Below are positions 9,947 to 60,105 of a DNA stretch of 64,000 nt, piece after piece. Source of the DNA: a phage. Position 1 is the first letter of the stretch. Every line of letters starts with the position of its first letter. Location: assembly GCA_024686575.1 (NCBI GenBank), contig GCA_024686575.1_4863.1; one strand, written 5' to 3'. Under the pieces are notes generated by a model. It saw only the letters and a program-made list of their open reading frames with translations, searched no databases and was not told the DNA's origin. A program made the translations under genes and the position numbers.

Positions 9947-10013
9947 ACAAAAAAAAAGAAAAAGAAATAAGGTTTACCTCTCCCTTCGGGGAGAGGTACC
10001 TTTTCTTTTTTAA
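9947..10013. terminator. bidirectional rho-independent terminator
   Basis: Stem TACCTCTCCC/GGGAGAGGTA with TTCG loop, A-run upstream and T-run downstream; sits between convergent genes. Confidence 0.8.
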
Positions 10014-15181: not shown

Positions 15182-15220
15182 TGAGCATCCCAGTAATAAT
15201 ACCAAAAGAATTATTCACGT

Positions 15221-15235
15221 AGATAATATCTATCT
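15221..15235 (-). promoter_or_regulatory. conserved motif 2 (plus AGATAATATCTATCT; inverted repeat AGATA-N5-TATCT)
   Basis: Exact 15-mer present four times in the window; here about 45 nt upstream of the ATG at 15181. Confidence 0.5.
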
Positions 15236-15985: not shown

Positions 15986-16025
15986 TACTGTCTCCTTAAG
16001 TTAAAACCGAACGACTCTCTCCCTA

Positions 16026-16040
16026 AGATAATATCTATCT
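16026..16040 (-). promoter_or_regulatory. conserved motif 2, copy downstream of the 766 aa gene terminator
   Basis: Exact 15-mer 41 nt upstream of the ATG at 15985, immediately after the terminator U-run. Confidence 0.5.
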
Positions 16041-18433: not shown

Positions 18434-18958
18434 TTATTTAGATAAATGACATGCGTACAACTGCGTCAGCACTTCGTGCGCAGCAAACTGCGTCGACGTA
18501 CTGAACGTATCATCCACGACACGAGTCTTGGGACGCATATATTTAAAAAGTTCTGCGCAGAACATCTTTTTCGCAGCGTGGTCTTCACTTAAAGAAAAAC
18601 CCGGTCCGGATTTAGCTTCTGCAAAAGACGCCACAACAACATCGCCACGTTGTGAGAACACCCAACGTAAACGACCGTCGAATGATTCCCCATATAAATC
18701 AGCAAGGGTTTCATTCGTACCTTTCTCAACCAGGTTTAAGACCTGGTCATAATAAAGAGTCGGAAGTGCAGGTGGTGCCATAATCGATTTATAAATCGAA
18801 ATAGGGTCACTCACTGGCAGTATGATGGAACTAAAGCCCGACGAGCAGTCATATAACCAGTTAAAGAAGCTTGCTTGGAGTTCCTCCAACTTTTTAACGC
18901 CAGCCCCTTTATCTATGTTAGATTGAACTTCCCACGGTGGACTAAAACGAATTTGCAT
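18434..18958 (-). CDS. hypothetical protein
   Basis: Track ORF 18434-19012; internal ATG at 18958 avoids a 40-nt divergent overlap with the plus gene at 18973; stop lies 12 nt upstream of the 766 aa gene start. Confidence 0.5.
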   Translation of the reverse strand: MQIRFSPPWEVQSNIDKGAGVKKLEELQASFFNWLYDCSSGFSSIILPVSDPISIYKSIMAPPALPTLYYDQVLNLVEKGTNETLADLYGESFDGRLRWVFSQRGDVVVASFAEAKSGPGFSLSEDHAAKKMFCAELFKYMRPKTRVVDDTFSTSTQFAAHEVLTQLYACHLSK

Positions 18959-18972
18959 TTTAAGGATGCTCC

Positions 18973-20535
18973 ATGAATAGTAAAATGATGTTGATAACCG
19001 CCTTAGCCGCACTGTATACAGAATCTATGCTGACGGACCCTAGCAAGGATCATGATGTCATAAGAAAAGTTCTGATGCAGATCAAGCTTCCGGAATATGC
19101 GGAAGATGGCGAAGAGCGCTTTGCACTCATCGAGATCAAGGACATTATCACATCTATCATAGACGGCGGCATGGAATACGACCACGCGAGCGTTATGAAG
19201 CGCTTGAAGCTGGCCACCACTCAAGTACGTCCTCTATACGATACGATTACCAAATTCCTCGAAGACGATTTGCCCGAGGAAGAAGACAAACGTACCGAGC
19301 ATCTTAATCGACAACTGTCTCAATATTATTTCCAATTACGTCAATGTTTACAGAGCGTCGAACTCAAAACAAAAATGGGTCGCGCGTTCGGAGCATTGAA
19401 TGGAACTGAGACACGTGTTGATCTGAACACCGCAGTGCTCGAACTCAAAGAGGCGTTATCTACGTTCGGTGAACGCTCTCATAATAAGATTCCATCATTG
19501 GTCGGTGAGCTGGTTACAGATAATCGTGCTCCGTTTGTTAAAGTGTTCGACTCGATTAACAAGAAAGCTGCAGGTAATGGTTTGCAGACGGGCTGGAAAG
19601 CCATTAACCAAATGCTCGGTTGTAACAAAGGGATTACCGAAGAACTGTGGCTAATGCCAGCGTTACCTTTTAACTGTAAGTCTTTGTTCAGTCTCTTGCT
19701 GAGCCTATCGATTCCTATCTTCAACACGCCTGAGAAAGTAATGGCGGATGTGAAGGGCACACTGCAACCAATTATTCTTGACTTGAGTTTAGAAAACGAA
19801 CTCGACGTTAACTTAGCTTACGGCTATCAAGCTCTGTACGGTCATTTTGAAGGACAAGTTCCACAGATGACCATTTCACAGGATGCAACCGCTGAAGAGA
19901 AGTTAGCACACACAACAGCAATGTCTGATTACCTCTGTGGTAAGATTCGCGCAAACGGTTGGGACTACGTTTTCCAAAAGCACACCAACTCTGATTTTAA
20001 AGTGCACTACATCAACGACCTTATTCTCGACTTACGTCGTCGCGGTTATCATGTTGTTGGCATTCGCGCAGACTACTTAGGCACAATCAGCAAAGCAGGA
20101 CACGGCAACGGTATTGCCGGGAGTGATATCAAAGAAATTTATCGTATTGCTCGTAACATTCAAGTGGTGCGCAACCGTGGGTTCTTAATTGCCCCACACC
20201 AGATTTCCCCAGAAGGTAAGCGCTTAAAAGCGTTAGACCCGGTAGGCTTCTGTAAGAACTTACCTGGTCGTGGTCTTTACGATAGTTGTTCGAGCCTTGA
20301 TAACGAGGCCGATGGTGAAATGTATTTTAACAAGCGTGTGGTCAACGGCCATAGCTTCTTAGAAGTTCAACGCGGTAAACACCGCACCATTATCGATACT
20401 AAAGAATCTTATCACTACACAGTGATACCTTTCCAGGATGTAGGCATCCTGCCTTGGGATTGTGATAAAGAAGAAACCGTAACAGCGTCGTCTATCAACT
20501 TCTTCACCGGTGGAATGGGTGATGATTTGTTCTAA
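18973..20535 (+). CDS. hypothetical protein
   Basis: 520 aa ORF; AAGGA Shine-Dalgarno 7 nt before ATG; hairpin after stop. Confidence 0.7.
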   Translation: MNSKMMLITALAALYTESMLTDPSKDHDVIRKVLMQIKLPEYAEDGEERFALIEIKDIITSIIDGGMEYDHASVMKRLKLATTQVRPLYDTITKFLEDDLPEEEDKRTEHLNRQLSQYYFQLRQCLQSVELKTKMGRAFGALNGTETRVDLNTAVLELKEALSTFGERSHNKIPSLVGELVTDNRAPFVKVFDSINKKAAGNGLQTGWKAINQMLGCNKGITEELWLMPALPFNCKSLFSLLLSLSIPIFNTPEKVMADVKGTLQPIILDLSLENELDVNLAYGYQALYGHFEGQVPQMTISQDATAEEKLAHTTAMSDYLCGKIRANGWDYVFQKHTNSDFKVHYINDLILDLRRRGYHVVGIRADYLGTISKAGHGNGIAGSDIKEIYRIARNIQVVRNRGFLIAPHQISPEGKRLKALDPVGFCKNLPGRGLYDSCSSLDNEADGEMYFNKRVVNGHSFLEVQRGKHRTIIDTKESYHYTVIPFQDVGILPWDCDKEETVTASSINFFTGGMGDDLF

Positions 20536-20561: not shown

Positions 20562-20851
20562 TACGGGCAGTTTATGCGTCCTGCCGAGATCAAAAAAAAT
20601 ACGACGAACTATTTATATGCGTGGAATTACCCGAGTGCTAGAACACTCGGGTATAATTATTCCAGGCAAATATTCCTGTTATCTCTTGTTGAGTATTATC
20701 TCACCTCCTAGTCCTTTAATGGTACGGGTGGAAGTCTGCGGTTGGCGGGTAACCTCTTGCAGACGTTGTTGAAAAGCGACTTGTTTCAGCTGTTGCTGAC
20801 GCAGTTGTTGCATAAAGGTATTCATGTTAACCTCTAGGTGGATGTGAATAA

Positions 20852-20938: not shown

Positions 20939-21799
20939 CTACGGTTTATAATCAACTTCGTTGATCTCACCGCAAGCCGGACAAGCAATGTTCATTGTCT
21001 GCGAAGTGTAGCGATGGGTTCTCGGTACTGTAGCGACATGGTTGCGGTTACAGCCGGAACACGTCCAACCGACCACTGGTGCCTTCGATTGTTTCGGGGC
21101 AGGAGTGTCTTCTTTTAACAATGCGACTACCGCGTGAAATTTACGAAGTTCTGCGTTAACATGCGCTTCCCAGTCGGCGTCCAAACGCGCCGTGAACCAA
21201 CGTTGAATCTTCTGGCCAAGGCCGTCTTGATTTTCTTCTTCATGGGACATCACAAACTTGAGATTTGCGCGACCCCACTGCACAACGTTCTCTACTTTAA
21301 TCCCGTCTACGGTGTCGCTGATTGGCGTATAGTTAAAAGTTGGATAGGTGAGATAACAAGCTTCAGCTGTTGCAAAGACCGTATTGCCTTCAAACAGCGC
21401 CATGGCCTCATCGCCCTTAGCATCCTTCTGTGCGGCTTCCAATCGTGGGCAATGGAAACCTTCAAGTTGCTGGATTTTGGTCGTTAGCGCATTGATACCC
21501 TGCAGCACAGCGATACGCTTTTTGCTGTCTGTAATGGTTGCCATTACCTTGCACAACGCGCGCGAGATAGCGCTATACATTGACGTTTTGCGGTTTTCAT
21601 CGAGGAAACGCTCTTGCTGCTCCAGGTCGTAAGAAGACAGGCCGTAGCTCTGCCCTTCGACCAACACGACGTAAGTACGACGTTTGTCGCGGTCCAGCTG
21701 GACAATGGCCGCATCGGTTAACGGATCGCTAGCCAATACTTCGTGGTCGGGAGGTAGGGGGAAATCTGAACTTTTGATGAAATCAGTAATGCTGTACAT
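20939..21799 (-). CDS. hypothetical protein with C-terminal Cys4 zinc ribbon
   Basis: 286 aa; C-terminus WTCSGCNRNH...NIACPACGEI (CxxC-N19-CxxC); terminator immediately downstream. Confidence 0.7.
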   Translation of the reverse strand: MYSITDFIKSSDFPLPPDHEVLASDPLTDAAIVQLDRDKRRTYVVLVEGQSYGLSSYDLEQQERFLDENRKTSMYSAISRALCKVMATITDSKKRIAVLQGINALTTKIQQLEGFHCPRLEAAQKDAKGDEAMALFEGNTVFATAEACYLTYPTFNYTPISDTVDGIKVENVVQWGRANLKFVMSHEEENQDGLGQKIQRWFTARLDADWEAHVNAELRKFHAVVALLKEDTPAPKQSKAPVVGWTCSGCNRNHVATVPRTHRYTSQTMNIACPACGEINEVDYKP

Positions 21800-22842: not shown

Positions 22843-22868
22843 TCACCTAGGTAATATATATCTGAAAT
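22843..22868 (-). promoter_or_regulatory. conserved promoter-like motif 1 (minus-strand reading contains TATATATTACCTAGGTGA)
   Basis: 26-nt exact repeat TCACCTAGGTAATATATATCTGAAAT shared with 31344-31369; lies between a terminator and the first gene of a small-gene operon. Confidence 0.55.
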
Positions 22869-31343: not shown

Positions 31344-31369
31344 CTCACCTAGGTAATATATATCTGAAA
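31344..31369 (-). promoter_or_regulatory. conserved promoter-like motif 1, second copy
   Basis: Identical 26-mer, with partial conservation of the next 15 nt; located after the paralog-1 terminator and about 50 nt upstream of the ATG at 31302. Confidence 0.55.
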
Positions 31370-34690: not shown

Positions 34691-35668
34691 TTAAACCAGA
34701 CCGTATTTTTTCTCCAGACGTTCACGTTTGTACTTGAGTTCCATCAAGCGCTTTTCGTGCGCTTCGATGAGTTTCTCAATGTGCACGTCCCCTTCACCGG
34801 CAGCCAGTTGTTTCTTGTACAACAGAATACGCAGTTCAGTCGCTTTCGCGGCTTCCACGCACTCGTCATAACGATCCATTTGCCATTCTGCAATATTCAG
34901 ACGCACGCGGTAGACGATCGACAGCGGGAACGGGACGGAGGACATGCCCAGCGGGTCAGTGGTGTTCGAACCGAACTGCTGAACCAATTGGCTATATGTC
35001 TCTTCGTCAAACACCGCTTCGGGTATCTCAGCGTAGTCTGCTTTCAGTTTGGTAATGGGGGTTGCCAGGACGCGCACCGCAATACAGAAAGACGTCTTAC
35101 GAGTTTGCAGATACTGAAGGTCTTTCGGACCGATTCCCTTCACTGCAATGTTCGAGTCTTGTACAGCGGCAATCTCTTCGGCCGTGATGTAGTTAATCAG
35201 GGTGCTAGCGTAACCGACGAAGAATTCGATCATATCCAGCAACTGCAACACGGTTTGTTTGTTGAACGTTAGAGATGATGTCACCAACGTCTTCCCGATG
35301 TCACGGTCGATACACTGCTCCAGGAAAGGTCGCAGCGCCTGTACGTTCTGCATAGACGCGATGACGTACTCCAGCATACTTGCGTTACGTAACCCTTTAA
35401 CTTCCAAACCGGAGCTATGCAGGTACTTAACGATTTCAGTAGAAAGGTCTGCAACAGGCTTCGCTTTAAATGGCTTACCCTGGATACTTCCTACCAGTTC
35501 CTGGAGGTTCTGGAACTGTGGCTCTAACGCAGCAATCGAGTCGCAGTTAGATGACAGTTGATTTTTTAAGTTGGTGGCTTCGAAGCTCGGCAGCAACATC
35601 GCCAACATATTCGGAATCGGCATTCTTTTCCCCTTACAGTACCGGATTCGCGCCAGCGCGATAGGCAT
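34691..35668 (-). CDS. hypothetical protein
   Basis: 325 aa ORF; C-terminal coiled-coil-like region. Confidence 0.7.
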   Translation of the reverse strand: MPIALARIRYCKGKRMPIPNMLAMLLPSFEATNLKNQLSSNCDSIAALEPQFQNLQELVGSIQGKPFKAKPVADLSTEIVKYLHSSGLEVKGLRNASMLEYVIASMQNVQALRPFLEQCIDRDIGKTLVTSSLTFNKQTVLQLLDMIEFFVGYASTLINYITAEEIAAVQDSNIAVKGIGPKDLQYLQTRKTSFCIAVRVLATPITKLKADYAEIPEAVFDEETYSQLVQQFGSNTTDPLGMSSVPFPLSIVYRVRLNIAEWQMDRYDECVEAAKATELRILLYKKQLAAGEGDVHIEKLIEAHEKRLMELKYKRERLEKKYGLV

Positions 35669-36752
35669 CGATGATTTTGTTTACATCGCCGCTACCGGAC
35701 TTCGCCTTGCTAAAGTCTGATTTGTCGAGTTCTTGAGACCCGGTCTGACCACGCGTATAAATGGTTACACGGTTCCAGGTCTGGTCGACAACCACGTAGT
35801 AAACAGTCAGGGTGTCTTTGAACACACGCTGGCGGATATTGTAATCATCGAAGTCACCGCCCAGCTGAGCAGTCAGATCGTCGATAGTTTCTTGAGAAAC
35901 CACCATAACCGAAGACGCGTTGTTGATGGATGGGCTCAGTGTCAGCAGGCCAGACAGCCAGTTGGCGTTTTTCTTCTCCATCATCTTGCGGTAATAACCG
36001 GACTTATCACGGAAGCGGTTCTTACGGTATTCTTCGATAAGGTCATTACACAGCGCGATATCTTTCGCGTAGCTGAGAGAACCGACCTTCGCGCGCAGCA
36101 CACGTTCCCAGAAGGTTTTGGTTTGATCGCTGAACGCGATGAGCGTTTTCATTTCGTCGGTCGGCAGAGACTTCACATCAAGACGCAGACGCATCGGCAG
36201 CTCGACTTTATTACCGTCACGTTCGAAGGTAACAGAGAACACTTTACCGTTGGACAGACCTTCTTGATCATGCAGGAGCTTCAGCGTGTTGTTCGGCAGC
36301 ACAGAACCTGCGGACGATTCAGTCGCTACTTTGTTATCGGATTTCTGGCGACGGGATTCACCGACCGCAAGCCCGATTTTATCGTATGACGGCAGCGTGT
36401 GACGGGAGGACTCGCCGATTGCGAAAGACGCTAAGCGAGAACCCGAACGTGCAGCCGCGTCGAGGGCATTACGACGGGTGCTAACCTGGTCAAGCGTACC
36501 AAGGATATCAACCTCAGGAACACCTACCAGAATTGAGATGGCGGTAAGTTGGTTGCCCGCGAGCAGGATTTGGATTTTCTCCAGAATACCTGGCAGGTAA
36601 TCTAAGCCCAACAGACTTTGTTCAACCAGCGTGGTGTGCTCGTTGTACAGCACAGAGTTGAATTCTTCCGTCGATTCCGCCCGCTGGCGAAGCAGCATGG
36701 GAAACTTAGAAAGAAAGGAGACGAGCGATGTCTCAAATGTTTTTTCTGCCAT
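35634..36752 (-). CDS. hypothetical protein
   Basis: 372 aa ORF; divergent from plus gene 36775; 12-bp palindrome AACTCCGGAGTT between the two starts supplies GGAG on both strands. Confidence 0.7.
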   Translation of the reverse strand: MAEKTFETSLVSFLSKFPMLLRQRAESTEEFNSVLYNEHTTLVEQSLLGLDYLPGILEKIQILLAGNQLTAISILVGVPEVDILGTLDQVSTRRNALDAAARSGSRLASFAIGESSRHTLPSYDKIGLAVGESRRQKSDNKVATESSAGSVLPNNTLKLLHDQEGLSNGKVFSVTFERDGNKVELPMRLRLDVKSLPTDEMKTLIAFSDQTKTFWERVLRAKVGSLSYAKDIALCNDLIEEYRKNRFRDKSGYYRKMMEKKNANWLSGLLTLSPSINNASSVMVVSQETIDDLTAQLGGDFDDYNIRQRVFKDTLTVYYVVVDQTWNRVTIYTRGQTGSQELDKSDFSKAKSGSGDVNKIIDAYRAGANPVL

Positions 36753-36761
36753 TTTTAACTA

Positions 36762-36773
36762 AACTCCGGAGTT
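36762..36773. promoter_or_regulatory. palindromic shared ribosome-binding element AACTCCGGAGTT
   Basis: Perfect 12-bp palindrome centred between divergent start codons (36752 and 36775), giving GGAG on both strands. Confidence 0.45.
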
Positions 36774-36774
36774 A

Positions 36775-38037
36775 ATGATGAGTAACGAGACCGATAAGAA
36801 CGATCCGGGGTATGACCCGAATACCGACTACGACAATTCGTATCAAAACCCGAATAATATCGATGCAGTACCATCGGTCGCCGACTACTTTGACCGTCGA
36901 CTGTCCGATGCGAAACCCACCACGGCGTACAACGTTAATGATGAGTTATCGGGTTGGAATGACCGTATCCGTCTTACGTTAGGTTTGGGTCTGGCTGCGC
37001 AGCGTGTGACCAACCCCTACATGGGGTTCAACCATATGATGGCGTCGAACCCGACGCCTGTTAACCGTGAGTACGGTGGTCTAACCTTTATTACCCGCCC
37101 TGACTTCAACTTGTGCTTTGACAACATTGCCAACTCGCGCAAGATGTCGAACATGGCTTCTCAGCCGAAATCGTCACTCGACTATTCCATTCTGGCAGCG
37201 TTAGACCCAGATTTTGAATTGGGGTTCTCTGATTCACCGATGGAAGATGGGCGAAGAAAGAACCGTTTGGGCACGCCATTCATGAAGGACATTATGTTTG
37301 ACAATCTTCAGGCATTCATACCATTGCTGAGTACACAGATGCTGAGCCTCTCGGGGATGCCTGACCAGTCTGTCGATAACTGGATGTCTGAAGAAGGTTT
37401 GATGCGCGAACAGTGGGGTATGGTTGACTCCACACATGAAATCAATAACCAGTACAGCATGTCGATGTCGCTGAACAACCCATACGGCAACCCTATCATG
37501 CGAATGATGGGTGTGTGGCTGGAGTATATGTCCGGCATTAAAATGGGTAAGTTCAAACCGAAGATGCGTAACTCCATCCAACGTCGCATTGACTACCAGT
37601 CAAGGATGTACGGGTTTAAATACGACGCACTCGGAAACATTACCCGTTTCTGGACAGCGTGTGTTTGTTGGCCGATGAACGATAACGCCGGTCAAATGGC
37701 GAACGTCGATAACACCAAGCCTCAATTAAATGACGACACCACAATTAACCTCAACTGGCAATGCATCGGGGCGCGCTTCGATGACCCATTGTACATGGAG
37801 ATGTTCAACTTGACGGTGTCTATGTTTAACCCGGATATGATGCCGCAACCAGGGAGTGTTGCAGCGGGCAACTTTATCCCGATTGCCGAAGACCAGCTTG
37901 TGCCGATTGCACCACAGCTACTACCGCTGTTCAACTACTACGGCTATCCGCACATCGACTCCCTGCGTCGTAAGCTGACCTGGTATGTTTATCAGGCAGA
38001 TTACCAATTCATCCTTAAACGAGCGGGCTTACTGTAA
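36775..38037 (+). CDS. hypothetical protein
   Basis: 420 aa ORF; GGAG upstream; tandem ATG ATG start; stop overlaps start of next gene. Confidence 0.7.
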   Translation: MMSNETDKNDPGYDPNTDYDNSYQNPNNIDAVPSVADYFDRRLSDAKPTTAYNVNDELSGWNDRIRLTLGLGLAAQRVTNPYMGFNHMMASNPTPVNREYGGLTFITRPDFNLCFDNIANSRKMSNMASQPKSSLDYSILAALDPDFELGFSDSPMEDGRRKNRLGTPFMKDIMFDNLQAFIPLLSTQMLSLSGMPDQSVDNWMSEEGLMREQWGMVDSTHEINNQYSMSMSLNNPYGNPIMRMMGVWLEYMSGIKMGKFKPKMRNSIQRRIDYQSRMYGFKYDALGNITRFWTACVCWPMNDNAGQMANVDNTKPQLNDDTTINLNWQCIGARFDDPLYMEMFNLTVSMFNPDMMPQPGSVAAGNFIPIAEDQLVPIAPQLLPLFNYYGYPHIDSLRRKLTWYVYQADYQFILKRAGLL

Positions 38038-40997: not shown

Positions 40998-41043
40998 AAA
41001 GCACTACCCTCTCCCGAAGGAGAGGGTAGCCTTTTATTTTATT
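40985..41043. terminator. bidirectional rho-independent terminator
   Basis: 11-bp stem CTACCCTCTCC/GGAGAGGGTAG flanked by A-run upstream and TTTTATTTTATT downstream, between convergent genes. Confidence 0.8.
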
Positions 41044-44580: not shown

Positions 44581-44650
44581 TTAGACGTTCCTTTTAGAAA
44601 ATACGTTACCCACAAATCAGTATAGCAGACACCATATTTGAGAGTAGACC

Positions 44651-46435
44651 ATGGAAATCAATACCTATTACGCACCCGAGGATGTCATCGCTAAAGAGTG
44701 CAAGCACGTCGCTTATGCGACGGACGAAGAAAAAGAAAATGACTTTGTCCTCATCAAAGAGGTCATCCATACTAAGGATGGCAGGCTTATCCCGCGCTTG
44801 GTAATGCGTGAGAATTTAAAGCGTCCGGTGTACGTTACCCGTGAAGAATATCGTAACCACCAGGAGAAAAAGGAGTTCGAAGAAAAAGGAAAATGTCAAG
44901 AACTCTGGACTACTGATGCGCAGATGGCGAAGACGTTGCAGATGGGTTTAGGTGCACGTTTCCCTGACCCGAAAAAGAACCTGAGGCGTGTTTGTACTAG
45001 CCCGTACGTTTATTGGGCCGACTTACCGATTACCAGCTGGATTAAACAGAAATACTTAAAGCGTTGGCCAAACAACATCAGTCCTAACCGTCTTTGTGTA
45101 TACGACGTAGAGACCAACGAAATGGACGGCACGAAGGAACCGTGGATCGTGTCATTTATCTTAGACGACGAAATCCATTTCTTTGGTGCTAAGAACTACA
45201 TGGACCGCATCGGTAAAAACGCGGAAGAAGTCATTCTCAAAAAAGCGCAGGAACTCTTAAGCAAAATCGAATTCGATGAGAAAGACAAAAAGACTGGCGA
45301 AAAGGTGACAAAGACCAAAGACATTATCAGTGGTTATAAAATCTTCACCTATACCTGCGCTACAGCAGGGCAGTGCATCGTCAGGATGTTCGAAGAAATT
45401 CATCCGCGTCTTCCTGATTTGCTGGTCGCATGGAACCACCAGTTCGATATTTCACGCATGTTAGAAACCTTGCAGAAAGAAGGCATCGATCCACTGGGCG
45501 TCTTTAACCATCCGGATGTGCCGGAGAAATACCGTCGTCTGTGGTTTAAAGAAGACCAGGCGAACAAAAAGACAGAATCCAAGTCACTCACCAAAGCACC
45601 GTCACAACAGTGGCACGTACTCTACTGTACTGCGTCTTTCTACTGTGTGGATGCCATGGTGTTATTCCGTTCGTTGCGTGTCCACGAAGGCCAACGTCCT
45701 TCGTACAAGTTATCTGCCATACTGTACACCGAACTCGGTTTACACAAACTCGACATTCCTGGCCTGCCGTATGAAGATAACCTGCAATGGCACATAAAAG
45801 CACAACGGGACTACCCTGCCGAATACGCCGTATACAACATGATGGATAACTTGTTAATTGTGTTGTTGGATAAGAAGACGAACGACTTGTCTTCAGCAAT
45901 ATCCATTCTGGCAGGTTTCTCGATGTACGATATCTTCCCGTCGCTACCAAAACGTATCTGTGTGGCCTTTACCTATTATCTGTATGACAAAGGATACGTC
46001 ATCGGCTCCGTAGGATCTGCAATGCGTAACGATTACGATGAAGAGGTTATCGGTACAGACGGTTGGATTGTTACCCTGACAGCATGTATGAATGCTGAGA
46101 ACGGTCTGAATAACATTCTGGAGGAGATTGACGAATATTACTCTGCGTTCCGTGGTCAAACTGCGGATGCGGACTTAACCCAGGCCTACCCTTCGGCCAC
46201 AAACATGATGAACCAGTCTCGTGAGACCACACTCATTGAACTGCTGTCCATCAATGGGGTTAGTGAAGAGATTCGACGTCGCACGGGCGTCAACTTAACT
46301 GCTGGGCGAGTTAATGCCATGGAAATAGCGACAGACTTCTTCTGCTTACCGGACAAAGACACTGTCCTGTCTACGTTCTTACGTAAGCAAGGGGAAGTAG
46401 TGACAGAGCCTATGGAGTACATCTGCGGGTTCTAA
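44651..46435 (+). CDS. family-B DNA polymerase N-terminal fragment (3-5 exonuclease domain plus motif A)
   Basis: 594 aa; Exo I-like VYDVETNE, Exo II-like VAWNHQFD, Exo III-like YCVDAM, and polymerase motif A-like DLTQAYPS; motifs B and C (KxxxNSxYG, YGDTDS) not found, so the rest of the polymerase is encoded elsewhere. Confidence 0.65.
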   Translation: MEINTYYAPEDVIAKECKHVAYATDEEKENDFVLIKEVIHTKDGRLIPRLVMRENLKRPVYVTREEYRNHQEKKEFEEKGKCQELWTTDAQMAKTLQMGLGARFPDPKKNLRRVCTSPYVYWADLPITSWIKQKYLKRWPNNISPNRLCVYDVETNEMDGTKEPWIVSFILDDEIHFFGAKNYMDRIGKNAEEVILKKAQELLSKIEFDEKDKKTGEKVTKTKDIISGYKIFTYTCATAGQCIVRMFEEIHPRLPDLLVAWNHQFDISRMLETLQKEGIDPLGVFNHPDVPEKYRRLWFKEDQANKKTESKSLTKAPSQQWHVLYCTASFYCVDAMVLFRSLRVHEGQRPSYKLSAILYTELGLHKLDIPGLPYEDNLQWHIKAQRDYPAEYAVYNMMDNLLIVLLDKKTNDLSSAISILAGFSMYDIFPSLPKRICVAFTYYLYDKGYVIGSVGSAMRNDYDEEVIGTDGWIVTLTACMNAENGLNNILEEIDEYYSAFRGQTADADLTQAYPSATNMMNQSRETTLIELLSINGVSEEIRRRTGVNLTAGRVNAMEIATDFFCLPDKDTVLSTFLRKQGEVVTEPMEYICGF

Positions 46436-46490
46436 AACAAAAAAAGAAAGGCCTCTCTACCCTAGGGTAGAGAGGTACTTTTATTTAGCC
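46436..46490. terminator. bidirectional rho-independent terminator
   Basis: Palindromic stem CCTCTCTACCC/GGGTAGAGAGG flanked by A-run and T-run, between convergent genes. Confidence 0.8.
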
Positions 46491-52278: not shown

Positions 52279-52662
52279 TTAACTTGCATCGTGTGGAACA
52301 GTCACCCAATCGTGCCATTTTTCAGAGTAAAGACGATAAGCCATCTTTGGATTCTGATCGACACTACCGGCCGGGTTCTCATTCCACAACACGTACGTAT
52401 ATAACTCGTACGACGAAGTGTTACGGATACTTGACGTGCGGGTGACGTAGTACGTCAACCCGCGTTGGTTAAGGAACAGGCCGCTGTAATGTTCAGTGAC
52501 CATGTAGTAGTGAAACGCCTGGTTGATAGTGGCGTCGGTACAGAGTTTCTTAGCGACGTCTTCTACGCCGGGATACGCCTTTAGAATGTTTTCGAGAAAA
52601 CTTGCTAAAGTCATTCCGATGTAGGGTGGCAGCGGCTCTGCTGGACGCGGCGGAGTGAGCAT
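52279..52662 (-). CDS. hypothetical protein
   Basis: 127 aa ORF with AAGGAA Shine-Dalgarno before ATG at 52662; overlaps the 3-prime end of the helicase ORF by about 113 nt in another frame. Confidence 0.5.
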   Translation of the reverse strand: MLTPPRPAEPLPPYIGMTLASFLENILKAYPGVEDVAKKLCTDATINQAFHYYMVTEHYSGLFLNQRGLTYYVTRTSSIRNTSSYELYTYVLWNENPAGSVDQNPKMAYRLYSEKWHDWVTVPHDAS

Positions 52663-55294
52663 GTGATTTCCTTACAACGTAGGGGGATGTCGCAATACGG
52701 AACGACAATACGACATCCTTGAGTGATTTCTGACGGGCATTCAGGTAATTGCAATGCTTCGGTACGTTATACGCATGGAATAACCACACCGTTGGGTCTA
52801 TTTCACCCCATTCGTTGTGGAGAATCTTACGTGGACGACCGGCCATCTGTTCGTTCAGTTGCTGGTCTTCTACCGGGGTTGAGATGTACATGTGTACCAA
52901 CCCAGGTTTATCGACCGCAGTCCCCGCTTTCCCCGGTGTGGAGATAGAGAAGTCTGCTTGGATAAAGTCGTCATACGAATCGCCTGCATTATATTTCGCC
53001 ACCATCAGTGGATGGAATACAGGGTCACGCGATAACTTATCTTTCACATACTCGGTAAAGAACTCACACATCGCTACCGTAGCAAAGAGTATCAAACATT
53101 TTTGGCCAGGCTGATACCGTTTAAGAAACGATTTCTCAACCACATCCCAGATCATGTTTGCGTATTCTAAATGCAAGTTCTCTTTAATCAGCTTCCCTTC
53201 GAAGAGCTTGTGGTTATACGGCGTCATCTTCGACGCCCACCACGCAAACTTCTTATCATCCAGTCGATAGTACAACGCCTTCACGTCAACCACCGGAATG
53301 ATTGGAATACTGATTCGGTACTCCATTGGGAAACGTTCTAAATACCGCTCCGCGATAAAGGCTTTACTGCTACCCGGCTTAAGAGTTGCAGACATCTCTA
53401 TCGATGCCGGCGGATTCAACATTATACCAGCCATGTAAACGAGGTGAAAATGCTCGTGCACCTCATCCATCGCCACCAGACCCACACCCAGAACATCATA
53501 AAACGTATCCAGGTCCACAGGGTTAGTCGCAGCAGTGTTAATGTACTCCTTCAGGAAACGCTGTAGAGAGACCGTGGGGAGGATTATTACCTTAATACCA
53601 CGACTATCTAGCTCTCCCGACTTACCCATCTCCAGTGCGTCGTAAATCGCCTGTACGCCTGTACAAACTAACACCTCGTCACGAAGTATACGAAGTCCTG
53701 TTTCATCATCACAGACGTCAAACAGCCATTTGGGAACGTACGACGGACGGTGAATCAATGCGGTACGGGTTCCCCGTTTAACCATCGACTTCATACAGGT
53801 CTTGGTGTTGTGCGTAACAATCCACTGTCCCAGAACGTACAGATGTTCATCGTTGTCGACAGTAATGCACGAACCATGACTCTTCCCAACATACACGATA
53901 GACTTAACACGGAGTTTCAGTGTATCGTTGTATTGACCGTTGTCGCGACACAGCGCTTTCTTACGCGGGAGGTTGAACAGCATTGAAGGTGTCTTGTGCC
54001 TAATGAACACCATATAAGCCAATTTACCTTCTCTACGTTCTCCTTTGTAAGTAAAGAACGGACGTTTTGTGGATATAGTTGCAATACCACCTAACGATCT
54101 CACCAACTCCTGGACGCCCAACGCCAGCGACTCGCTGGTGCTACAATACGACGGCTGCCCTCCATCTTTATTCACGGTTCCGTCCGTGTCCATTAAACCG
54201 CGCAGCAGCTCCCAGCGTTGCTCAATCGAGCCTTCAAAATATTCATCCGGAATATATTTTCTATCAGACCCTTTCCCTAGAAGACCGTGGTCCTGCAAAT
54301 AGAGCGGCCAGGACATCGGCACTTCACGTCTGCGACGACGCATTCTATACTGATAACGATCGGCGGGAACCATCTCGGTATCGTCAGGTAAATACTTCCT
54401 CACCAGCTCGACAGTTTCTGGATCGGCTGATGTGAAGCCTACCGCGCCATTTTCACAGGCGTGGCCGTTTCCCAAGAATGCCCCCATGAGATACGGATGT
54501 ATTTTAAAGCACTTTTCACTTGTCTCTTCCGGTTCAGGTAACGGAATGTAGACTCGCGGGTTCGGCATTGCAATCAGTCGCTGAATTTCTTCCGTACTTC
54601 TTACCTGCCACCGAGTGTTTGGTGTGGTATTGACGTAGTAGGATTGCCAGAGATGCTCTTTACCGACCACAGTCTTACGTCCGTCAGCAAAAGTTATCTC
54701 GTAAAAATCCCAATCTTCATGCGGGTACACCGCCGTCACATTCGTCGGCTTCCCATCCCTACCGATTACCACATCCCCGACTTCTAGCTCTCCATGTAAT
54801 TTCCACCCACCAGGAATCCTTACACGCTGATCCCATCTACAGACCTTTCCTCTTCCTGTTTGTATCGCGAAAACCGTTTGTGAACGCGATGGATCTGTTG
54901 CGGCGGCTACGACTTCATTCTGATAATAGAAACGCGACTCTGGGTCTGTTTCTTCCATCTTGAATCCGTAATTATCAAACGTGCACTTATAAGGTTCTGC
55001 ACGTTCAGGATGGTGCTCTGTTAGCTTGTACTGAAAAGCGTATTCAATTGCTGCTCGTTGGAGGATATGTTTAATCTTCTCAGCGAACACTTTATGGAAA
55101 ATGAACGTCCTTAAAGACGGAATGTGAGCGTAGTACGCGTCACCGCGTTCCGTAGTTATTCGTCCATGTTGCTTGCCCATCTTTGGGGCGTGCATATTCT
55201 CTTCGGCCCACGCGAGTATGGCCCTTTCAGCCTGGCGGATAGGGACTTCAACCCGTACCCCCATACTCGTGTAAGTCATTTGAATTTCTACCAT
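52550..55294 (-). CDS. DExH-box (SF2-type) helicase/ATPase interrupted by an intein
   Basis: 914 aa from ATG at 55294 (GAGG Shine-Dalgarno; track N-terminal extension rejected); Walker-A-like AIQTGRGKV, motif II AMDEVHEH, motif III SAT; about 345 aa intein inserted after GRGKV. Confidence 0.75.
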   Translation of the reverse strand: MVEIQMTYTSMGVRVEVPIRQAERAILAWAEENMHAPKMGKQHGRITTERGDAYYAHIPSLRTFIFHKVFAEKIKHILQRAAIEYAFQYKLTEHHPERAEPYKCTFDNYGFKMEETDPESRFYYQNEVVAAATDPSRSQTVFAIQTGRGKVCRWDQRVRIPGGWKLHGELEVGDVVIGRDGKPTNVTAVYPHEDWDFYEITFADGRKTVVGKEHLWQSYYVNTTPNTRWQVRSTEEIQRLIAMPNPRVYIPLPEPEETSEKCFKIHPYLMGAFLGNGHACENGAVGFTSADPETVELVRKYLPDDTEMVPADRYQYRMRRRRREVPMSWPLYLQDHGLLGKGSDRKYIPDEYFEGSIEQRWELLRGLMDTDGTVNKDGGQPSYCSTSESLALGVQELVRSLGGIATISTKRPFFTYKGERREGKLAYMVFIRHKTPSMLFNLPRKKALCRDNGQYNDTLKLRVKSIVYVGKSHGSCITVDNDEHLYVLGQWIVTHNTKTCMKSMVKRGTRTALIHRPSYVPKWLFDVCDDETGLRILRDEVLVCTGVQAIYDALEMGKSGELDSRGIKVIILPTVSLQRFLKEYINTAATNPVDLDTFYDVLGVGLVAMDEVHEHFHLVYMAGIMLNPPASIEMSATLKPGSSKAFIAERYLERFPMEYRISIPIIPVVDVKALYYRLDDKKFAWWASKMTPYNHKLFEGKLIKENLHLEYANMIWDVVEKSFLKRYQPGQKCLILFATVAMCEFFTEYVKDKLSRDPVFHPLMVAKYNAGDSYDDFIQADFSISTPGKAGTAVDKPGLVHMYISTPVEDQQLNEQMAGRPRKILHNEWGEIDPTVWLFHAYNVPKHCNYLNARQKSLKDVVLSFRIATSPYVVRKSHAHSAASSRAAATLHRNDFSKFSRKHSKGVSRRRRRR
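53807..54841 (-). mobile_element. intein with LAGLIDADG homing-endonuclease domain
   Basis: Starts with Cys after the P-loop and ends VLGQWIVTHN followed by Thr; LAGLIDADG-like motifs YLMGAFLGNGHA and LLRGLMDTDGTV; in frame within the helicase ORF. Confidence 0.7.
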
Positions 55295-55304
55295 GCTGCC
55301 CCTC

Positions 55305-55337
55305 TTCGCACAAAAAAAGAGGGGCGCAAGGCCCCTC
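55305..55337 (-). terminator. rho-independent terminator or attenuator between RNAP genes and helicase gene
   Basis: Stem GAGGGGC/GCCCCTC followed on minus strand by TTTTTTTGTG; helicase Shine-Dalgarno and ATG follow within about 12 nt. Confidence 0.65.
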
Positions 55338-55340
55338 GGT

Positions 55341-57446
55341 TTACAACTCAATTACCACAGCGGCTCCTAGGTCATCGTACAACGATGCCGGGATTTTGTA
55401 CTCGGTATAAAAACCAACGCGATCGATATTCCCCTGCTGTCCTTCAAACAACAACATCGGAATTGCCGAGCGCAAACTAATGAGCGTGTTGTGATCGACA
55501 AACCGTTTCCCTGTAGCGTTAGTAGAATCCTCACTGTCAAATCCTACTGCCGGGAACGGATTGGTTGGCGACTCTACACGAGATATCGCCAACATAATCG
55601 CAATGTGCGTCATCGGTATACCACTCAGCTTACGCTGGATATACTTAAACGTGTCCATCAACGCATAAGTACACTGTTTCTCTGTAGCACCACCCATTTC
55701 AACCAACGTCACCGGTTTCACACGACCTTGTTTCTTGTTCAGCTTCACAGTCGAGGCTGTGTTGATGATTTCCACAATGTCTTCGTTCTTATCGGCAGCA
55801 ATCGAACGGAGCTTGGTTTCTAAGCCGGCTACGAACTCCGCCATCGATTCAGAACGGTTGGTGTAGACCAGGACCGGGTGTTTCGGGTTCCATCCTTTTA
55901 AGGGGATTTCTACCGTCTTCTTCTCGATACGAATGTTCGCTCGTTGTTTCAAGAAGTAGTGCAGGAACGGTTTAGAGAAGTTCCCACAAACACCCATTCG
56001 CACATCGATAGAATCCGCAGCGATTATCTGCCCATCTTCTAAACGACGTTGGAAAGTTAAGTCGGTGATTTCTGGTAATGCCGTTTCATCAATTGCATCG
56101 AGATCTTCATGATACGCAATCTGGCTCAGCTCCGAATAAACTTTGTCGGTAACAACCAACTCGTATTCTGACCAATTCCCACGCTGTGGTTTTGGCAGCA
56201 AGCACAACCCTTTCAGAGAGTTATGTTTGTATTCGGTCATATACTCACGCATACGTGGGGTGAGTACCAGGTTGAGCAGATAACGCAAGAAGTCAAGGTG
56301 CTTGGTAGAGAGAATTCCCTGTGTACCCTTTTCCGAGATGGACGTGGATGCCAGGTGACCTGGTGACGTACCTTCAGAGAGGTTATAAATCAAATCCCCC
56401 ATACAGGTCGCACAGATGGACTGATTCGCCATCTCTTTACAGGTCATGGCACTACGGAAGACCAGCGGTTTGCCAACCAGGTCTGCGTATCCGCCTTTCT
56501 CAAATCGCAACCACGGACCATTATCGCCTTCTAAACGATAACGCATCCCCACCATCGCTTTATAGGCACGCTCATCCAGCTGCGTATCCTTAAACGTGTA
56601 GCGGTGTGCGTGTGTTGTACCGCAGTCGTCGTACGTGAAATACATCAGTACGTTTGCTGCCAGCTGCAGTTTACGTGAGGCGTATTCTGCTTCGGCAATC
56701 TTGTCAGTGTTGTACAGGTGGGAACGTGAAGTTGCACCAGATTCTTTCAAACGCGAAATAACCGAATGCATTCCGGTAAAGAAGCCTTCCCACACCTGAT
56801 TGGTGTATACACGTGAGTCAATTTCTGACGTTTTGCCGCGCACGAACGCTTGCAGTACCTGGTTCATCTTCACGGTACCGTCCAGTACCGACATTACGAC
56901 TGGGTTATACCGCAGCGCAGGGTCTTTGAAGATTTTCTCGATAAGCTTATACGCTTCTTCAACCATATCCTGACCATCTTCATCGTAGCCAGTAGGATAC
57001 TGCACTTCCCACTGACGGATGAGTTCGAAGTTCGGGTGGTCGTAGATCTCCATCATCGTATCAAAGTCGATTGTCGTACAATAGGACAGCAAGTTCTTCA
57101 CTGTCATGTTGAACGCATCGGCGTAGACATGTTGACTCAGGATATAACGCGTTTCAGCAAGGTCGACACCTGCTTTACGGGCCAGTACCGCTGCTTCCGA
57201 CATAAAGTCCAGATGCAGGTCATCTGTTGCTACCTGACCTGGACGATACGCCATGGTCGATGGAGTGGGCACCTGCGGATACAGACGCGACACACCCCAA
57301 TACGGCCAGCTGAGTTTGATGTGGCGACTAGACATTTCCAACGACTTACCATCGTCGAAAGTCACGTAATAACGCCCGCGTAGTTTCCACACCTGATCAG
57401 AGTTAAGCATACGCAAATCACGTACGTGTACAGAACGACCCGCCAT
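55341..57446 (-). CDS. multisubunit RNA polymerase beta-prime-like subunit, C-terminal part
   Basis: 701 aa; ASTSISEKGTQGILSTKH matches the beta-prime trigger-loop signature AAQSIGEPGTQLTMRTFH; preceded by a Cys cluster (C-x8-C-x2-C) as in the C-terminal Zn site of beta-prime. Confidence 0.7.
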   Translation of the reverse strand: MAGRSVHVRDLRMLNSDQVWKLRGRYYVTFDDGKSLEMSSRHIKLSWPYWGVSRLYPQVPTPSTMAYRPGQVATDDLHLDFMSEAAVLARKAGVDLAETRYILSQHVYADAFNMTVKNLLSYCTTIDFDTMMEIYDHPNFELIRQWEVQYPTGYDEDGQDMVEEAYKLIEKIFKDPALRYNPVVMSVLDGTVKMNQVLQAFVRGKTSEIDSRVYTNQVWEGFFTGMHSVISRLKESGATSRSHLYNTDKIAEAEYASRKLQLAANVLMYFTYDDCGTTHAHRYTFKDTQLDERAYKAMVGMRYRLEGDNGPWLRFEKGGYADLVGKPLVFRSAMTCKEMANQSICATCMGDLIYNLSEGTSPGHLASTSISEKGTQGILSTKHLDFLRYLLNLVLTPRMREYMTEYKHNSLKGLCLLPKPQRGNWSEYELVVTDKVYSELSQIAYHEDLDAIDETALPEITDLTFQRRLEDGQIIAADSIDVRMGVCGNFSKPFLHYFLKQRANIRIEKKTVEIPLKGWNPKHPVLVYTNRSESMAEFVAGLETKLRSIAADKNEDIVEIINTASTVKLNKKQGRVKPVTLVEMGGATEKQCTYALMDTFKYIQRKLSGIPMTHIAIMLAISRVESPTNPFPAVGFDSEDSTNATGKRFVDHNTLISLRSAIPMLLFEGQQGNIDRVGFYTEYKIPASLYDDLGAAVVIEL

Positions 57447-59683
57447 TATTTATCCTCCCGAATTGGACGCACTAATTCAAAACCTTCACAGCGATGGATG
57501 TTACGTATCATCCTGTCAATCTGCGAATCACCCATTGGCAGTTTCTTACGATCGACCAGCACCCCTGGATTGGTTGGTGTTGGCGAGTTATACAGCCCCG
57601 TTACGATCGCACGGTGTACCGCAGGGTTATTAGCGCGGTCATGAGTTTCGGGGAAGTTGCCCGGACCAAAGCCGTCGGTAAGACGCTGCTCGGAAGGACC
57701 ACCCCACTTCAACCCTTTCAGGTTAATCGGATATGAACCACGTCCTTGGTTGGATGCATCAATACAACCCAAATAGTTCGTGTACATCGACGAGATACTG
57801 GAGAACTCACGACCGGTTTTATCCAGGCGCAGAGTCTCTACCATGCCGACGTAAAACTGGTTCTTCGTCCACTCTTTCTCACCCTGATAGTTAGTAATCA
57901 GTAGCTTAGACTTGCGTGGTGCATACTCGCCTAGAGCACGGCAGATTTCTACCTGGGTAGCATTCAATTCGTGGGGAAGCCAGATACGAATCGTGAAGTC
58001 GTAAATCTCTTTAAAGAGTTCCAGACGTGACCCAGTATCCGGGTGACTGGCATTGAGATAGAATGTCCAGCGTGGGTTATAGCGATCGATATAGTCCATC
58101 AGGATTTCCCAGGCTTCATCAACCTGGTTGGCGGCAAGTAAAGGTTTCAACCGCATCTTCAACTGCTCGGATGCAGCAGACCAATACATGTGGAACAGCG
58201 CAGCATAAGTCGAACGACGAATTACGGCGTTCATGGAACGAATGACATGCACACGTTCTCCGAACTCGTTAATCGGCATTTCTTCATCAGGCCGCACTGC
58301 GCCCACGATACCTTTTGTACCTGAACGGTCGGTGATTTTCGATGAGACGGTAACTGGGATTGGATAACGTACCACGATGCGTATCGTGTAACTACCAATT
58401 GGGTCCCAGAGACCACGCTGAACCGGCTGCGCCAGTTTGTTTAACACGTTCTTATCAGCAGAACGGTTATACTCGCCTTTACGCATGGCTTCATCGTATT
58501 CACGACCAATCTCTTCACGGAAGTCGTTATAGACTTCATACGTCTCAGAACAGAACGCCTTGTCAAGAATCTCAAACGCTTTCGGTGACCAGACGATATT
58601 CTTGTCCTTGGACATCGCAAAATAGAACCGTACGATATCATTGTAAAAACGTTTCAAAGCGTTCGCGTAGTGATCTAACTCGCGTTTGTTCTCTTCGGTA
58701 CATGCGATATTGTTAACACCACGATCGCATTTGGTTTCGTCCCGCCATACCTGAATATCAACGACACGAGAACCGGTACGTTCCATCTTTTCAAAGTCGC
58801 CAGCCAGTCGCGCTTTGTAATGCTCAGGGTCGGCATCAACATACTCACAACGGTCGAAGTGCGGAGAGACATGTTGTGTTTCACCTACGTGCGAGTCAAT
58901 GGCTGCCCATAGCTTATCGAAACGGCGCGCGGCAATAACCAACCCATCATCACGAATTGCCTGTCCTTTATTGGGCAGGTACTGTGGTCGACGAACGCCA
59001 TCAATACCCGTTGTCCCATACGTATCAAGCAGGTACTCGTCGTCGCGCAAGGTAAAGTCGATTGCACGCAAACCATAAGCGTGCATCGCTTTCGCTGCAG
59101 TTTCGGAGATGGTGTACGAGTCCTCGATAATGTCCGGGTGCGACATCGTCACGGTGTGCAGGTTGACCCCATCGACAAACTCACCGTCTTTCTGTGCCGG
59201 CAGCACGGTAAGCATTTCATCTTTTTCCAGGTGCTGCGTCTGCCCGCGCAGCAACGCCTGAAGTTTCCCAGTAGCCTCTTTCTTAGACGAGAAAATGTTA
59301 TCGTGGTTGGTGTAATACTTAATATCGATTACATCAATCATCACTTTGCGCTGGTTGGTTAAATCTGCGCGCGTGAAGAAGATAACATGTTGGAGCGGTT
59401 CGTGATCCCCTTCACGACCATAGCGTGCAAAAACAGCTGCACGAGTAACACCTTCTTTGGTTGTGTAACTGCACACGGTACCACTGTCTTCCACGATATC
59501 GTTAAAACAATAATCGTGGTAGTTCACATCAGCGCCGGTAAAATGGATAGTCGGATCTGGATTGTCCAGTGGTACCGCCGACTTCATATGTCCACCCACC
59601 ATTGAGGCACGTGCCCCAGATACGCCAGTGATATTCACCTCACGGTCAGCAACGCTTGACATGAGTTCGACTGGTGTTTTCAT
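57446..59683 (-). CDS. multisubunit RNA polymerase beta-like subunit, C-terminal part
   Basis: 745 aa; ITDRSGTKGIVGAVRPDEEMP matches the beta signature [20 protein letters not shown]; C-terminal GGPSEQRLTDGFG resembles GGQRFGEMEVWA; stop overlaps the start of the beta-prime-like gene. Confidence 0.7.
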   Translation of the reverse strand: MKTPVELMSSVADREVNITGVSGARASMVGGHMKSAVPLDNPDPTIHFTGADVNYHDYCFNDIVEDSGTVCSYTTKEGVTRAAVFARYGREGDHEPLQHVIFFTRADLTNQRKVMIDVIDIKYYTNHDNIFSSKKEATGKLQALLRGQTQHLEKDEMLTVLPAQKDGEFVDGVNLHTVTMSHPDIIEDSYTISETAAKAMHAYGLRAIDFTLRDDEYLLDTYGTTGIDGVRRPQYLPNKGQAIRDDGLVIAARRFDKLWAAIDSHVGETQHVSPHFDRCEYVDADPEHYKARLAGDFEKMERTGSRVVDIQVWRDETKCDRGVNNIACTEENKRELDHYANALKRFYNDIVRFYFAMSKDKNIVWSPKAFEILDKAFCSETYEVYNDFREEIGREYDEAMRKGEYNRSADKNVLNKLAQPVQRGLWDPIGSYTIRIVVRYPIPVTVSSKITDRSGTKGIVGAVRPDEEMPINEFGERVHVIRSMNAVIRRSTYAALFHMYWSAASEQLKMRLKPLLAANQVDEAWEILMDYIDRYNPRWTFYLNASHPDTGSRLELFKEIYDFTIRIWLPHELNATQVEICRALGEYAPRKSKLLITNYQGEKEWTKNQFYVGMVETLRLDKTGREFSSISSMYTNYLGCIDASNQGRGSYPINLKGLKWGGPSEQRLTDGFGPGNFPETHDRANNPAVHRAIVTGLYNSPTPTNPGVLVDRKKLPMGDSQIDRMIRNIHRCEGFELVRPIREDK

Positions 59684-59713
59684 TCGTAAATGCTCCTTTT
59701 GGTTACCTCGGTA

Positions 59714-59728
59714 AGATAATATCTATCT
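59714..59728. promoter_or_regulatory. conserved motif 2 in divergent intergenic region
   Basis: Exact 15-mer between the RNAP beta-like gene start (59683) and the plus gene start (59750); could serve either or both. Confidence 0.5.
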
Positions 59729-60073: not shown

Positions 60074-60105
60074 AAAAAAGAAGGGACGCCCAGTCCCTTC
60101 TTTCT
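60072..60105. terminator. bidirectional terminator
   Basis: Stem GAAGGGAC/GTCCCTTC with A-run upstream and short T-run downstream, between convergent genes. Confidence 0.65.

Follow-up and report, generated by a model that had tools for sequence, protein, structure and literature searches.

Divergent gene pairs of an SPN3US-like jumbo phage: mirrored ribosome-binding sites and candidate promoters inside the opposite reading frames

Jumbo phages of the lineage of phiKZ transcribe their genes with multisubunit RNA polymerases of their own (PMC7598289). For the non-virion RNA polymerase (nvRNAP) of phiKZ, a TATG with the transcription start at its G is necessary, and no upstream consensus has been reported (PMC4666361, PMC7598289, PMC7618050). 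The late promoters of this phage (5'-T-3 A T G+1) are represented by the experimentally defined P119L (gctatattgcTATGtag), which carries T at -6 and -7. Here, we compare this arrangement with that of three tight divergent junctions, gp50/gp49, gp74/gp73 and gp82/gp81, in a 64-kb window, which denotes the whole stretch of phage DNA analysed (64,000 nucleotides of contig GCA_024686575.1_4863.1). With a probability of roughly 0.7, judged from sequence conservation and from analogy with phiKZ, these junctions belong to compact divergent units of a phiKZ-related jumbo phage, in which the promoters would be embedded in the opposite open reading frames (ORFs).

The homologous phiKZ junctions, which have the same gene order and orientation, are separated by 39 bp (gp88/gp89), 35 bp (gp128/gp129) and 211 bp (helicase/gp119), and these gaps have been compressed to 25, 11 and 14 bp, respectively, in the SPN3US-like clade. 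The gp74-gp75 unit of the window is syntenic with phiKZ gp119-gp120, which is driven by P119L from within the 211-bp gap, and the equivalent TATG is now found inside the helicase ORF. Both systems share the lineage, homologous split beta and beta' RNA polymerases, the placement of sites upstream of structural genes, and the same four-base motif, with the thymines of P119L at -6 and -7 recurring in 13 conserved sites of the window at the frequencies given below. They differ in that the sites described here are predicted and lie inside the coding sequence of the opposite gene, whereas P119L is intergenic, and in that they fall within 7-15-nt invariant blocks, in contrast to phiKZ, for which no consensus of the flanks has been described.

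Face-to-face promoters and overlapping 5' untranslated regions (UTRs) of divergent genes are also found in the pR/pL pair of coliphage 186 and in the Listeria "excludon". The likeness lies in opposed promoters with transcripts that overlap in antisense across both 5' ends, as predicted here; the differences are that the polymerases of the present system are phage-encoded, that the promoters would lie within ORFs, and that the overlap is a predicted one. Such an overlap opens the possibility of transcriptional interference or of double-stranded RNA effects.

The window showed 98.8-99.2% identity to Salmonella phages SPN3US and SEGD1 (Seoulvirus), in the reverse orientation relative to their GenBank records, and by this identity it is that of a Seoulvirus (SPN3US-like, phiKZ-related) jumbo phage. 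Gene names were transferred from the SPN3US annotation (JN641803; 99% identity for gp50). The comparison set comprised 12 phages from five genera (Seoulvirus, Erskinevirus, Machinavirus, Wellingtonvirus and Derbicusvirus), namely the window phage and 11 others, from each of which the syntenic 44-47 kb were taken; nucleotide identity at the junction ranged from about 88% down to less than 70%. The ORFs at 57446-59683 and 55341-57446 matched PHROG families of RNA polymerase beta subunits (E = 4e-268 and 6e-241), and gp23, gp34, gp35 and gp42 are annotated in GenBank as beta and beta' subunits.

Mirrored ribosome-binding sites between the start codons

All three junctions listed in the original prediction were recovered at their positions (Table 1) and were kept in the 11 other phages, with spacers of 21-29 bp at gp50/gp49 and of 11-14 and 11-15 bp at the other two. 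The ATG of each of the six genes was conserved in all 12 phages, together with a Shine-Dalgarno box 5-12 nt upstream, and the predicted pairing energies with the 3' end of 16S rRNA (-5.6 to -6.6 kcal/mol) were close to the window median of -6.1. The alignments of the six genes showed three-base periodicity and in-frame indels right up to the start codons. For five of the six proteins (gp50, gp73, gp74, gp81 and gp82), the alignment with PHROG profiles began at residues 1-4, and homologues of gp74 with as little as 58% identity still aligned from residue 1. The two genes of every pair start as annotated, and a mis-called start is unlikely.

One start codon was nonetheless reassigned. The start of gp50, read as CAT at 36750-36752 for the minus strand, stood as first proposed. 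For gp49, two in-frame ATGs were available, at 36775 and 36778, the former of which had yielded the originally proposed gap of 22 bp. This first ATG occurs solely in Seoulvirus members and lies 3 nt past the GGAG; the second, which is the sole one present in 10 of the 12 phages (...AAAG ATG AGT AAC GAG...), lies 6 nt past it and is the start annotated in GenBank. Because the ATG at 36778 combines conservation, distance and annotation, gp49 likely starts there, with a spacer of 25 rather than 22 bp.

The spacers of 11-25 bp are pairs of mirror-image translation initiation regions, in each of which a Shine-Dalgarno box is followed by a short A-rich stretch and the ATG. They resemble ordinary initiation regions in their boxes (GGAG, AAGGA or GGGG, 5-12 nt from the ATG) and in their genome-median energies, but differ in that two of them share 11-25 bp on opposite strands, which leaves every base of the spacer under constraint on both strands. 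At gp74/gp73, the box of gp73 is AAGGA (18962-18966) and that of gp74 is GGAG (plus-strand CTCC, 18969-18972), which abuts the ATG of gp73; the AAGG-TGCTCC of this spacer was invariant in 12 of 12 phages. At gp82/gp81, the box of gp81 is GGAG (7195-7198) and that of gp82 is GGGG (plus-strand CCCC, 7200-7203), and CGGAGACCCC was invariant in the nine phages outside Derbicusvirus. The boxes of these two junctions are interdigitated, each adjoining the start codon of the other gene, and the 5' UTRs must therefore begin inside the opposite ORF.

At gp50/gp49, the box-to-start-codon spacers measured 6-12 nt across the 12 phages. A perfect palindrome between the two starts had been proposed to provide one shared Shine-Dalgarno sequence. 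The palindrome, AACTCCGGAGTT, is present and does supply GGAG to both mRNAs; it does so, however, through two adjacent boxes made of distinct bases, one per strand, with the CTCC of gp50 (36764-36767, minus-strand reading) and the GGAG of gp49 (36768-36771) back to back. Within this single genome the palindrome is statistically unremarkable, with 14 perfect 12-bp palindromes in the window against 15.6 expected and one copy of CTCCGGAG against 0.7 expected. Its position and conservation, by contrast, exceed chance: the core ACTCCGGAGT (36763-36772) was invariant in all 12 phages, was the longest invariant run of a 325-nt alignment, and occurred exactly once per 13-50-kb locus, at the gp50/gp49 junction every time. 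PhiKZ, in contrast, lacks the CTCCGGAG palindrome. In EarlPhillipIV, the whole CAT...ATG segment is close to a single palindrome of 27 bp.

Two alternative explanations bear on these spacers. The palindrome could have a function beyond that of two ribosome-binding sites, either as the operator of a dimeric protein or as a common 10-mer RNA target that couples the translation of gp49 and gp50. Its core is invariant beyond the 4-nt GGAG boxes, and complementary A/T changes lengthen the palindrome to 14-18 bp in Kwan, Huxley and ChrisDB. Abutting GGAG boxes (CTCC/GGAG) with A/T-rich spacers, however, generate such a palindrome automatically, and since the spacers of both mRNAs are A-rich, the symmetry is prolonged by a T-rich left and an A-rich right flank on the plus strand. 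Conservation was about equal in the spacers of gp74/gp73 and gp82/gp81, which are not palindromic, so no palindrome-specific function is needed, and the single copy per locus, with none elsewhere, speaks against an operator. Moreover, an Rfam scan of 35500-38000 gave no matches, and no unusual or stable RNA fold was found in the gp50/gp49 region (fold z-score -0.95). We regard such an additional function as improbable; on the comparative evidence, dual-strand constraint accounts for the conservation, and the palindrome is a by-product of mirrored ribosome-binding sites. It is far less probable still that one start codon per pair was mis-called and that the real intergenic spaces are of normal size. 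This would draw on the in-frame ATGs at codons 5-6 of gp73, on the PHROG profile that covers gp49 from residue 43 only, and on the blindness of virion proteomics to the N-termini of gp50 and gp81, whose propeptides (127 residues in SPN3US gp50, at least 161 in gp81) are removed (PMC5694885). It is opposed by the start codons and boxes conserved in all 12 phages for all six genes, by the coding periodicity that extends up to the starts, and by the N-terminal alignments described above.

A hairpin (GAGACG-agcga-TGTCTC, followed by a U-rich run) was found in the predicted leader of gp49, antisense to gp50 codons 7-12 and 44-60 nt upstream of the gp49 ATG. It was kept in 10 of the 12 phages and absent in Kwan and SNUABM_11; 81% of its cells were paired, compared with 35-52% in slid controls, and one pair at synonymous sites takes the forms GC, AU, CG and GU, the G-U pairs being valid on the plus strand only. 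It could, tentatively, be a leader stem-loop or attenuator. The hairpin was not relied on, as it is missing in one genus and thermodynamically ordinary by the same z-score.

Conserved TATG elements inside the opposite reading frames

Conservation was assessed with shared k-mers, BLAST projection and MAFFT alignments of 800 nt on either side of four divergent junctions, namely the three tight pairs and gp45/gp44, which has a 70-bp spacer. Among the TATG occurrences that read towards a junction, 8 of 15 were invariant in the 12 phages, compared with a 4-mer background of 2.7%, which ranked this motif first among all 4-mers (binomial p = 1.6e-9); those reading away from a junction were invariant in 2 of 18 cases. 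These eight invariant sites, spread over all four junctions, carry the motif of phiKZ-type late promoters. Invariant blocks 7 nt or longer numbered 14 in these alignments; seven of them hold a TATG and two more are the spacers themselves.

Projection of about 45 kb onto the 11 relatives gave a concordant picture, in that CATA, which corresponds to TATG on the majority coding strand, was the most conserved 4-mer (10/38, against a background of 5.8%). None of the conserved TATGs was an in-frame methionine codon (0/24), and antisense TATG was conserved in 7 of 20 cases, compared with 1/43 for AATG and 5/77 for GATG. All seven conserved antisense copies adjoin divergent junctions and point across them. 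The signal emerged only when conservation and orientation were taken into account, as the plain TATG count within 65 nt upstream of all genes was at chance level (about 0.19 per gene). A scan for sigma-70 promoters around the junction was uninformative (12 matches against 13.4 expected), and a 9-mer context test was discarded as too strict to be useful.

Across 13 conserved sites, five of them on the sense strand, position -7 was A or T in 13 of 13 and position -6 was T in 12 of 13, and +2 was often A. The sites are carried by codons of the host genes such as AAC ATA, GTC ATA AGA, TTC ATA, CAT Axx and TCA TAC, with invariant ATA and AGA codons among them. Both of these codons are rare in enterobacteria. 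With the G of TATG taken as +1, the candidate starts predicted from these sites are listed in Table 1. The block TATCGTATGACGG(CA), which would hold the promoter of gp49-gp48, exceeds every other invariant block in length over the 800 nt on either side of the gp50/gp49 junction. The products of gp49, gp50, gp74-gp75, gp81 and gp45 are virion proteins; gp73 encodes a helicase, and its candidate site is preceded, at about 20-24 nt, by the conserved TTTTTAAC, which resembles the phiKZ middle-promoter motif.

In the arrangement that we favour, transcription would start within the opposite ORF at W(-7)T(-6)NN-TATG(+1) elements, read by the phage's non-virion multisubunit RNA polymerase in the manner of phiKZ late promoters. 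Located 56-565 nt upstream of the start codons, the conserved sites would be encoded through the host gene's synonymous codon choices (xxC ATA, CAT Axx, TCA TAC). Since the sites are embedded in opposite ORFs and directed across the junctions, paired promoters would face each other, and the 5' leader of each mRNA would be antisense to the 5' coding region of its neighbour. The predicted antisense overlap amounts to approximately 140 nt at gp74/gp73 and 650 nt at gp50/gp49, and would span both ribosome-binding sites. The original claim, which placed the promoters inside the opposite gene, finds indirect support in this respect, both in the conserved TATGs in the opposite ORFs and in the promoter type of the lineage. 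Its premise that the spacers offer no room for a promoter fared less well. They do hold essentially two ribosome-binding sites, but the premise assumes a promoter of sigma-70 size and is weakened by the 4-8-nt element used by the lineage's own RNA polymerases.

At the convergent ends, bidirectional intrinsic terminators, consisting of strong hairpins flanked by A- and T-runs, were found at five of five junctions of the window and would close each unit. Given these terminators, each unit needs its own promoter, and neither the small opposite-strand islands nor the genes behind them are likely to depend on read-through. The terminator at gp48/gp47, in particular, is predicted to block read-through towards gp50. 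The terminator-flanking run ACAAAAAAAGAAA was conserved across the 12 phages.

Several points weigh against this assignment, which is derived from motif conservation and the phiKZ analogy. No transcription start map for SPN3US or its relatives was found in the literature searched, and in phiKZ itself TATG is required for a promoter but does not suffice (PMC4666361, PMC7618050). For gp82, the search gave no well-conserved TATG site, its strongest candidate (8004) being present in 8 of 12 phages. With the nearest conserved sites of gp49 and gp50, the leaders would be long (281-390 nt), and gp73, as a helicase gene, would be expected to be middle rather than late. In addition, synonymous sites near TATG were more often conserved (72% versus 10%), but this result is partly circular, and in a fairer control the flanks of TATG (58%) showed no excess over the flanks of other invariant 4-mers (52%). 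Synonymous-site constraint was consequently dropped as support. Also rejected, for want of conservation, was a window TATG located 59 nt upstream of gp82.

Two further alternatives concern how the transcripts arise. The junctions might have no promoters at all, with gp50, gp74 and gp82 expressed by long read-through that crosses the islands in antisense, the island genes served by distant promoters, and the TATG blocks otherwise explained. The highly interconnected transcription units and leaky terminators of jumbo phages (PMC10914365) would suit such a scheme, as would the insufficiency of TATG in phiKZ and the want of a good site for gp82. The stems of 11-12 bp that form bidirectional terminators at every convergent junction argue in the opposite direction, as do the orientation bias of the invariant TATGs and the placement of all seven conserved antisense copies beside divergent junctions, and we therefore consider read-through unlikely. 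Alternatively, the 5' ends could be produced by processing, with RNase III or RNase E cutting complementary leaders so that the mature mRNAs begin near the Shine-Dalgarno boxes. Processed 5' UTR fragments are common in phiKZ, and the 140-650 nt of complementary RNA expected from face-to-face promoters would be a natural substrate for RNase III. Such cleavage, which we judge to have little chance of being the explanation, would nevertheless add to embedded promoters rather than replace them. Promoters embedded in the opposite ORFs thus remain the preferred reading. A more doubtful extension of it is a built-in antisense switch, in which the complementary leaders of 140-650 nt could render the expression of neighbouring genes mutually exclusive, or place it in temporal order, with the helicase ahead of the capsid genes as one example. 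If true, the switch would act by polymerase collision or through double-stranded RNA, and the leaders would include an identical palindromic 10-mer in both mRNAs. On this same doubtful reading, the W-T-NN-TATG blocks would also supply the specificity determinants still missing for the nvRNAP promoters of jumbo phages.

GenBank already lists these genes with their spacing, and both ORF-embedded promoters and overlapping divergent transcripts are known principles, so no new mechanism is put forward. What is added is comparative evidence that SPN3US-like enterobacterial phages may use the phiKZ-type TATG start-site element, along with approximately 13 precise candidate start sites that can be tested. 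As the elements are frozen in coding sequence across five genera, the constraint on their flanks (W at -7, T at -6, often A at +2) becomes visible, which bears on the acknowledged gap that TATG alone does not explain nvRNAP specificity (PMC4666361, PMC7618050) and hints at extended promoter determinants. In practical terms, deleting a gene close to these junctions, or recoding it with synonymous codons, could switch off the gene beside it.

Table 1. Coordinates of the divergent genes, spacers, predicted terminators and candidate promoters in the window.
Feature	Position	Strand	Description
gp50 coding sequence	35634-36752	-	Head protein (SPN3US annotation); PHROG 3239 aligned from residue 2
gp49 coding sequence	36778-38037	+	Virion protein; conserved start ATG AGT AAC GAG, 6 nt past GGAG
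gp50/gp49 spacer	36753-36777		25 bp, gp50 left, gp49 right; 21-29 bp in 12 phages
Palindrome AACTCCGGAGTT	36762-36773		Perfect, 12 bp; two abutting Shine-Dalgarno boxes
Hairpin	36718-36734	+	Predicted gp49 leader
gp74 coding sequence	18434-18958	-	Positional counterpart of phiKZ gp119; directly upstream of major capsid gene gp75
gp73 coding sequence	18973-20535	+	DnaB-like helicase
gp74/gp73 spacer TTTAAGGATGCTCC	18959-18972		14 bp; CAT 18956-18958, ATG 18973
gp82 coding sequence	5010-7193	-	Virion protein; positional counterpart of phiKZ gp128
gp81 coding sequence	7205-9946	+	Portal protein; long N-terminal propeptide
gp82/gp81 spacer CGGAGACCCCA	7194-7204		11 bp; CAT 7191-7193, ATG 7205
Convergent-junction terminator	9975-9998		
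Convergent-junction terminator	~20620-20660		
Convergent-junction terminator, gp48/gp47	41003-41030		Stem of 11-12 bp, U-runs on both strands; closes the gp49-gp48 unit
Convergent-junction terminator	46451-46476		
Convergent-junction terminator	~60080-60105		
Candidate promoter, gp49-gp48	36380-36394	+	Block TATCGTATGACGG(CA) in gp50; TATG 36385-36388; start 36388, 390 nt upstream of ATG
Candidate promoter, gp50	37030-37036	-	In gp49; CATA 37033-37036; start 37033, 281 nt upstream of ATG
Second candidate, gp50	37315-37325	-	Invariant block AATGGTATGAA in gp49; CATA 37317-37320; start 37317, 565 nt upstream
Candidate promoter, gp73	18914-18917	+	In gp74, codons AAC ATA; start 18917, 56 nt upstream of ATG
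Candidate promoter, gp74-gp75	19057-19066	-	Block TTCTTATGAC in gp73; CATA 19059-19062; codons GTC ATA AGA; start 19059, 101 nt upstream
Second candidate, gp74-gp75	19479-19493	-	In gp73; start 19480, 522 nt upstream of gp74 ATG
Candidate promoter, gp81 (portal)	6938-6941	+	TATG in gp82, 12/12 phages; start 6941, 264 nt upstream of ATG
Candidate promoter, gp45	44768-44771	-	Invariant block TTAGTATGGA in gp44; start 44768, 188 nt upstream; 70-bp divergent spacer

Other conserved elements and differences between records

Conserved TATG blocks were also observed on the sense (minus) strand, at 18691 and 18748 in gp74, at 34208 and 34481 in gp52, and at 47180 in gp42. They are located 155-430 nt upstream of gp75 (major capsid), gp53 (abundant head proteins) and gp43, and may be internal late promoters. 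Within gp74, a 23-nt block, ATTTAAAAAGTTCTGCGCAGAAC (18541-18563), was invariant in 12 of 12 phages and was the longest such block near the gp74/gp73 junction. It holds a 14-bp palindrome, GTTCTGCGCAGAAC, and its coding-strand (minus) sequence is that of a hairpin with a trailing UUUUU, some 120 nt upstream of where the major capsid gene begins (18421); an attenuator or a processing site is a possible role. A related sequence, AAGTTCTGCG, is present at 21146-21155.

The 70-bp spacer between gp45 and gp44, which encodes a DNA polymerase, spans 44581-44650 and carries, on the gp44 strand and in all relatives, AAAAT(T)ACG..AC followed some 15 nt later by TATAG. This element resembles the phiKZ middle-promoter motif AAanTTACc, and the gp45/gp44 junction would pair an intergenic middle promoter with an ORF-embedded TATG for the other gene.

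Two AT-rich repeats were found on the minus strand. AGATAGATATTATCTTA occurs in four copies, compared with 0.07 expected (15219-15235, 16024-16040, 59712-59728 and 63455-63471), and TATATTACCTAGGTGA, which resembles the phiKZ early TATATTAC, in two exact copies (22843-22858 and 31345-31360). Most copies of both repeats lie upstream of genes, and that of AGATAGATATTATCTTA at 59712 falls within the 66-bp divergent spacer of gp34/gp33; its core, GATAnTATC, is nearly palindromic. Both repeats are probably early or middle phage promoters.

Relative to SPN3US, the gp36 region (52550-55351) diverges, with an ORF of 933 residues and a TTG start in the window versus 568 residues in SPN3US, and alignment limited to the 3' 1.1 kb at 92% identity. 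For SPN3US gp60 and gp72, no match was found in the window. In the SEGD1 record (KU726251), the portal gene (window 7205-9946) and the equivalent of gp84 (3595-4482) are annotated as two to three fragments, which probably reflect frameshift sequencing errors in that record, as the corresponding ORFs are intact in both the window and SPN3US.

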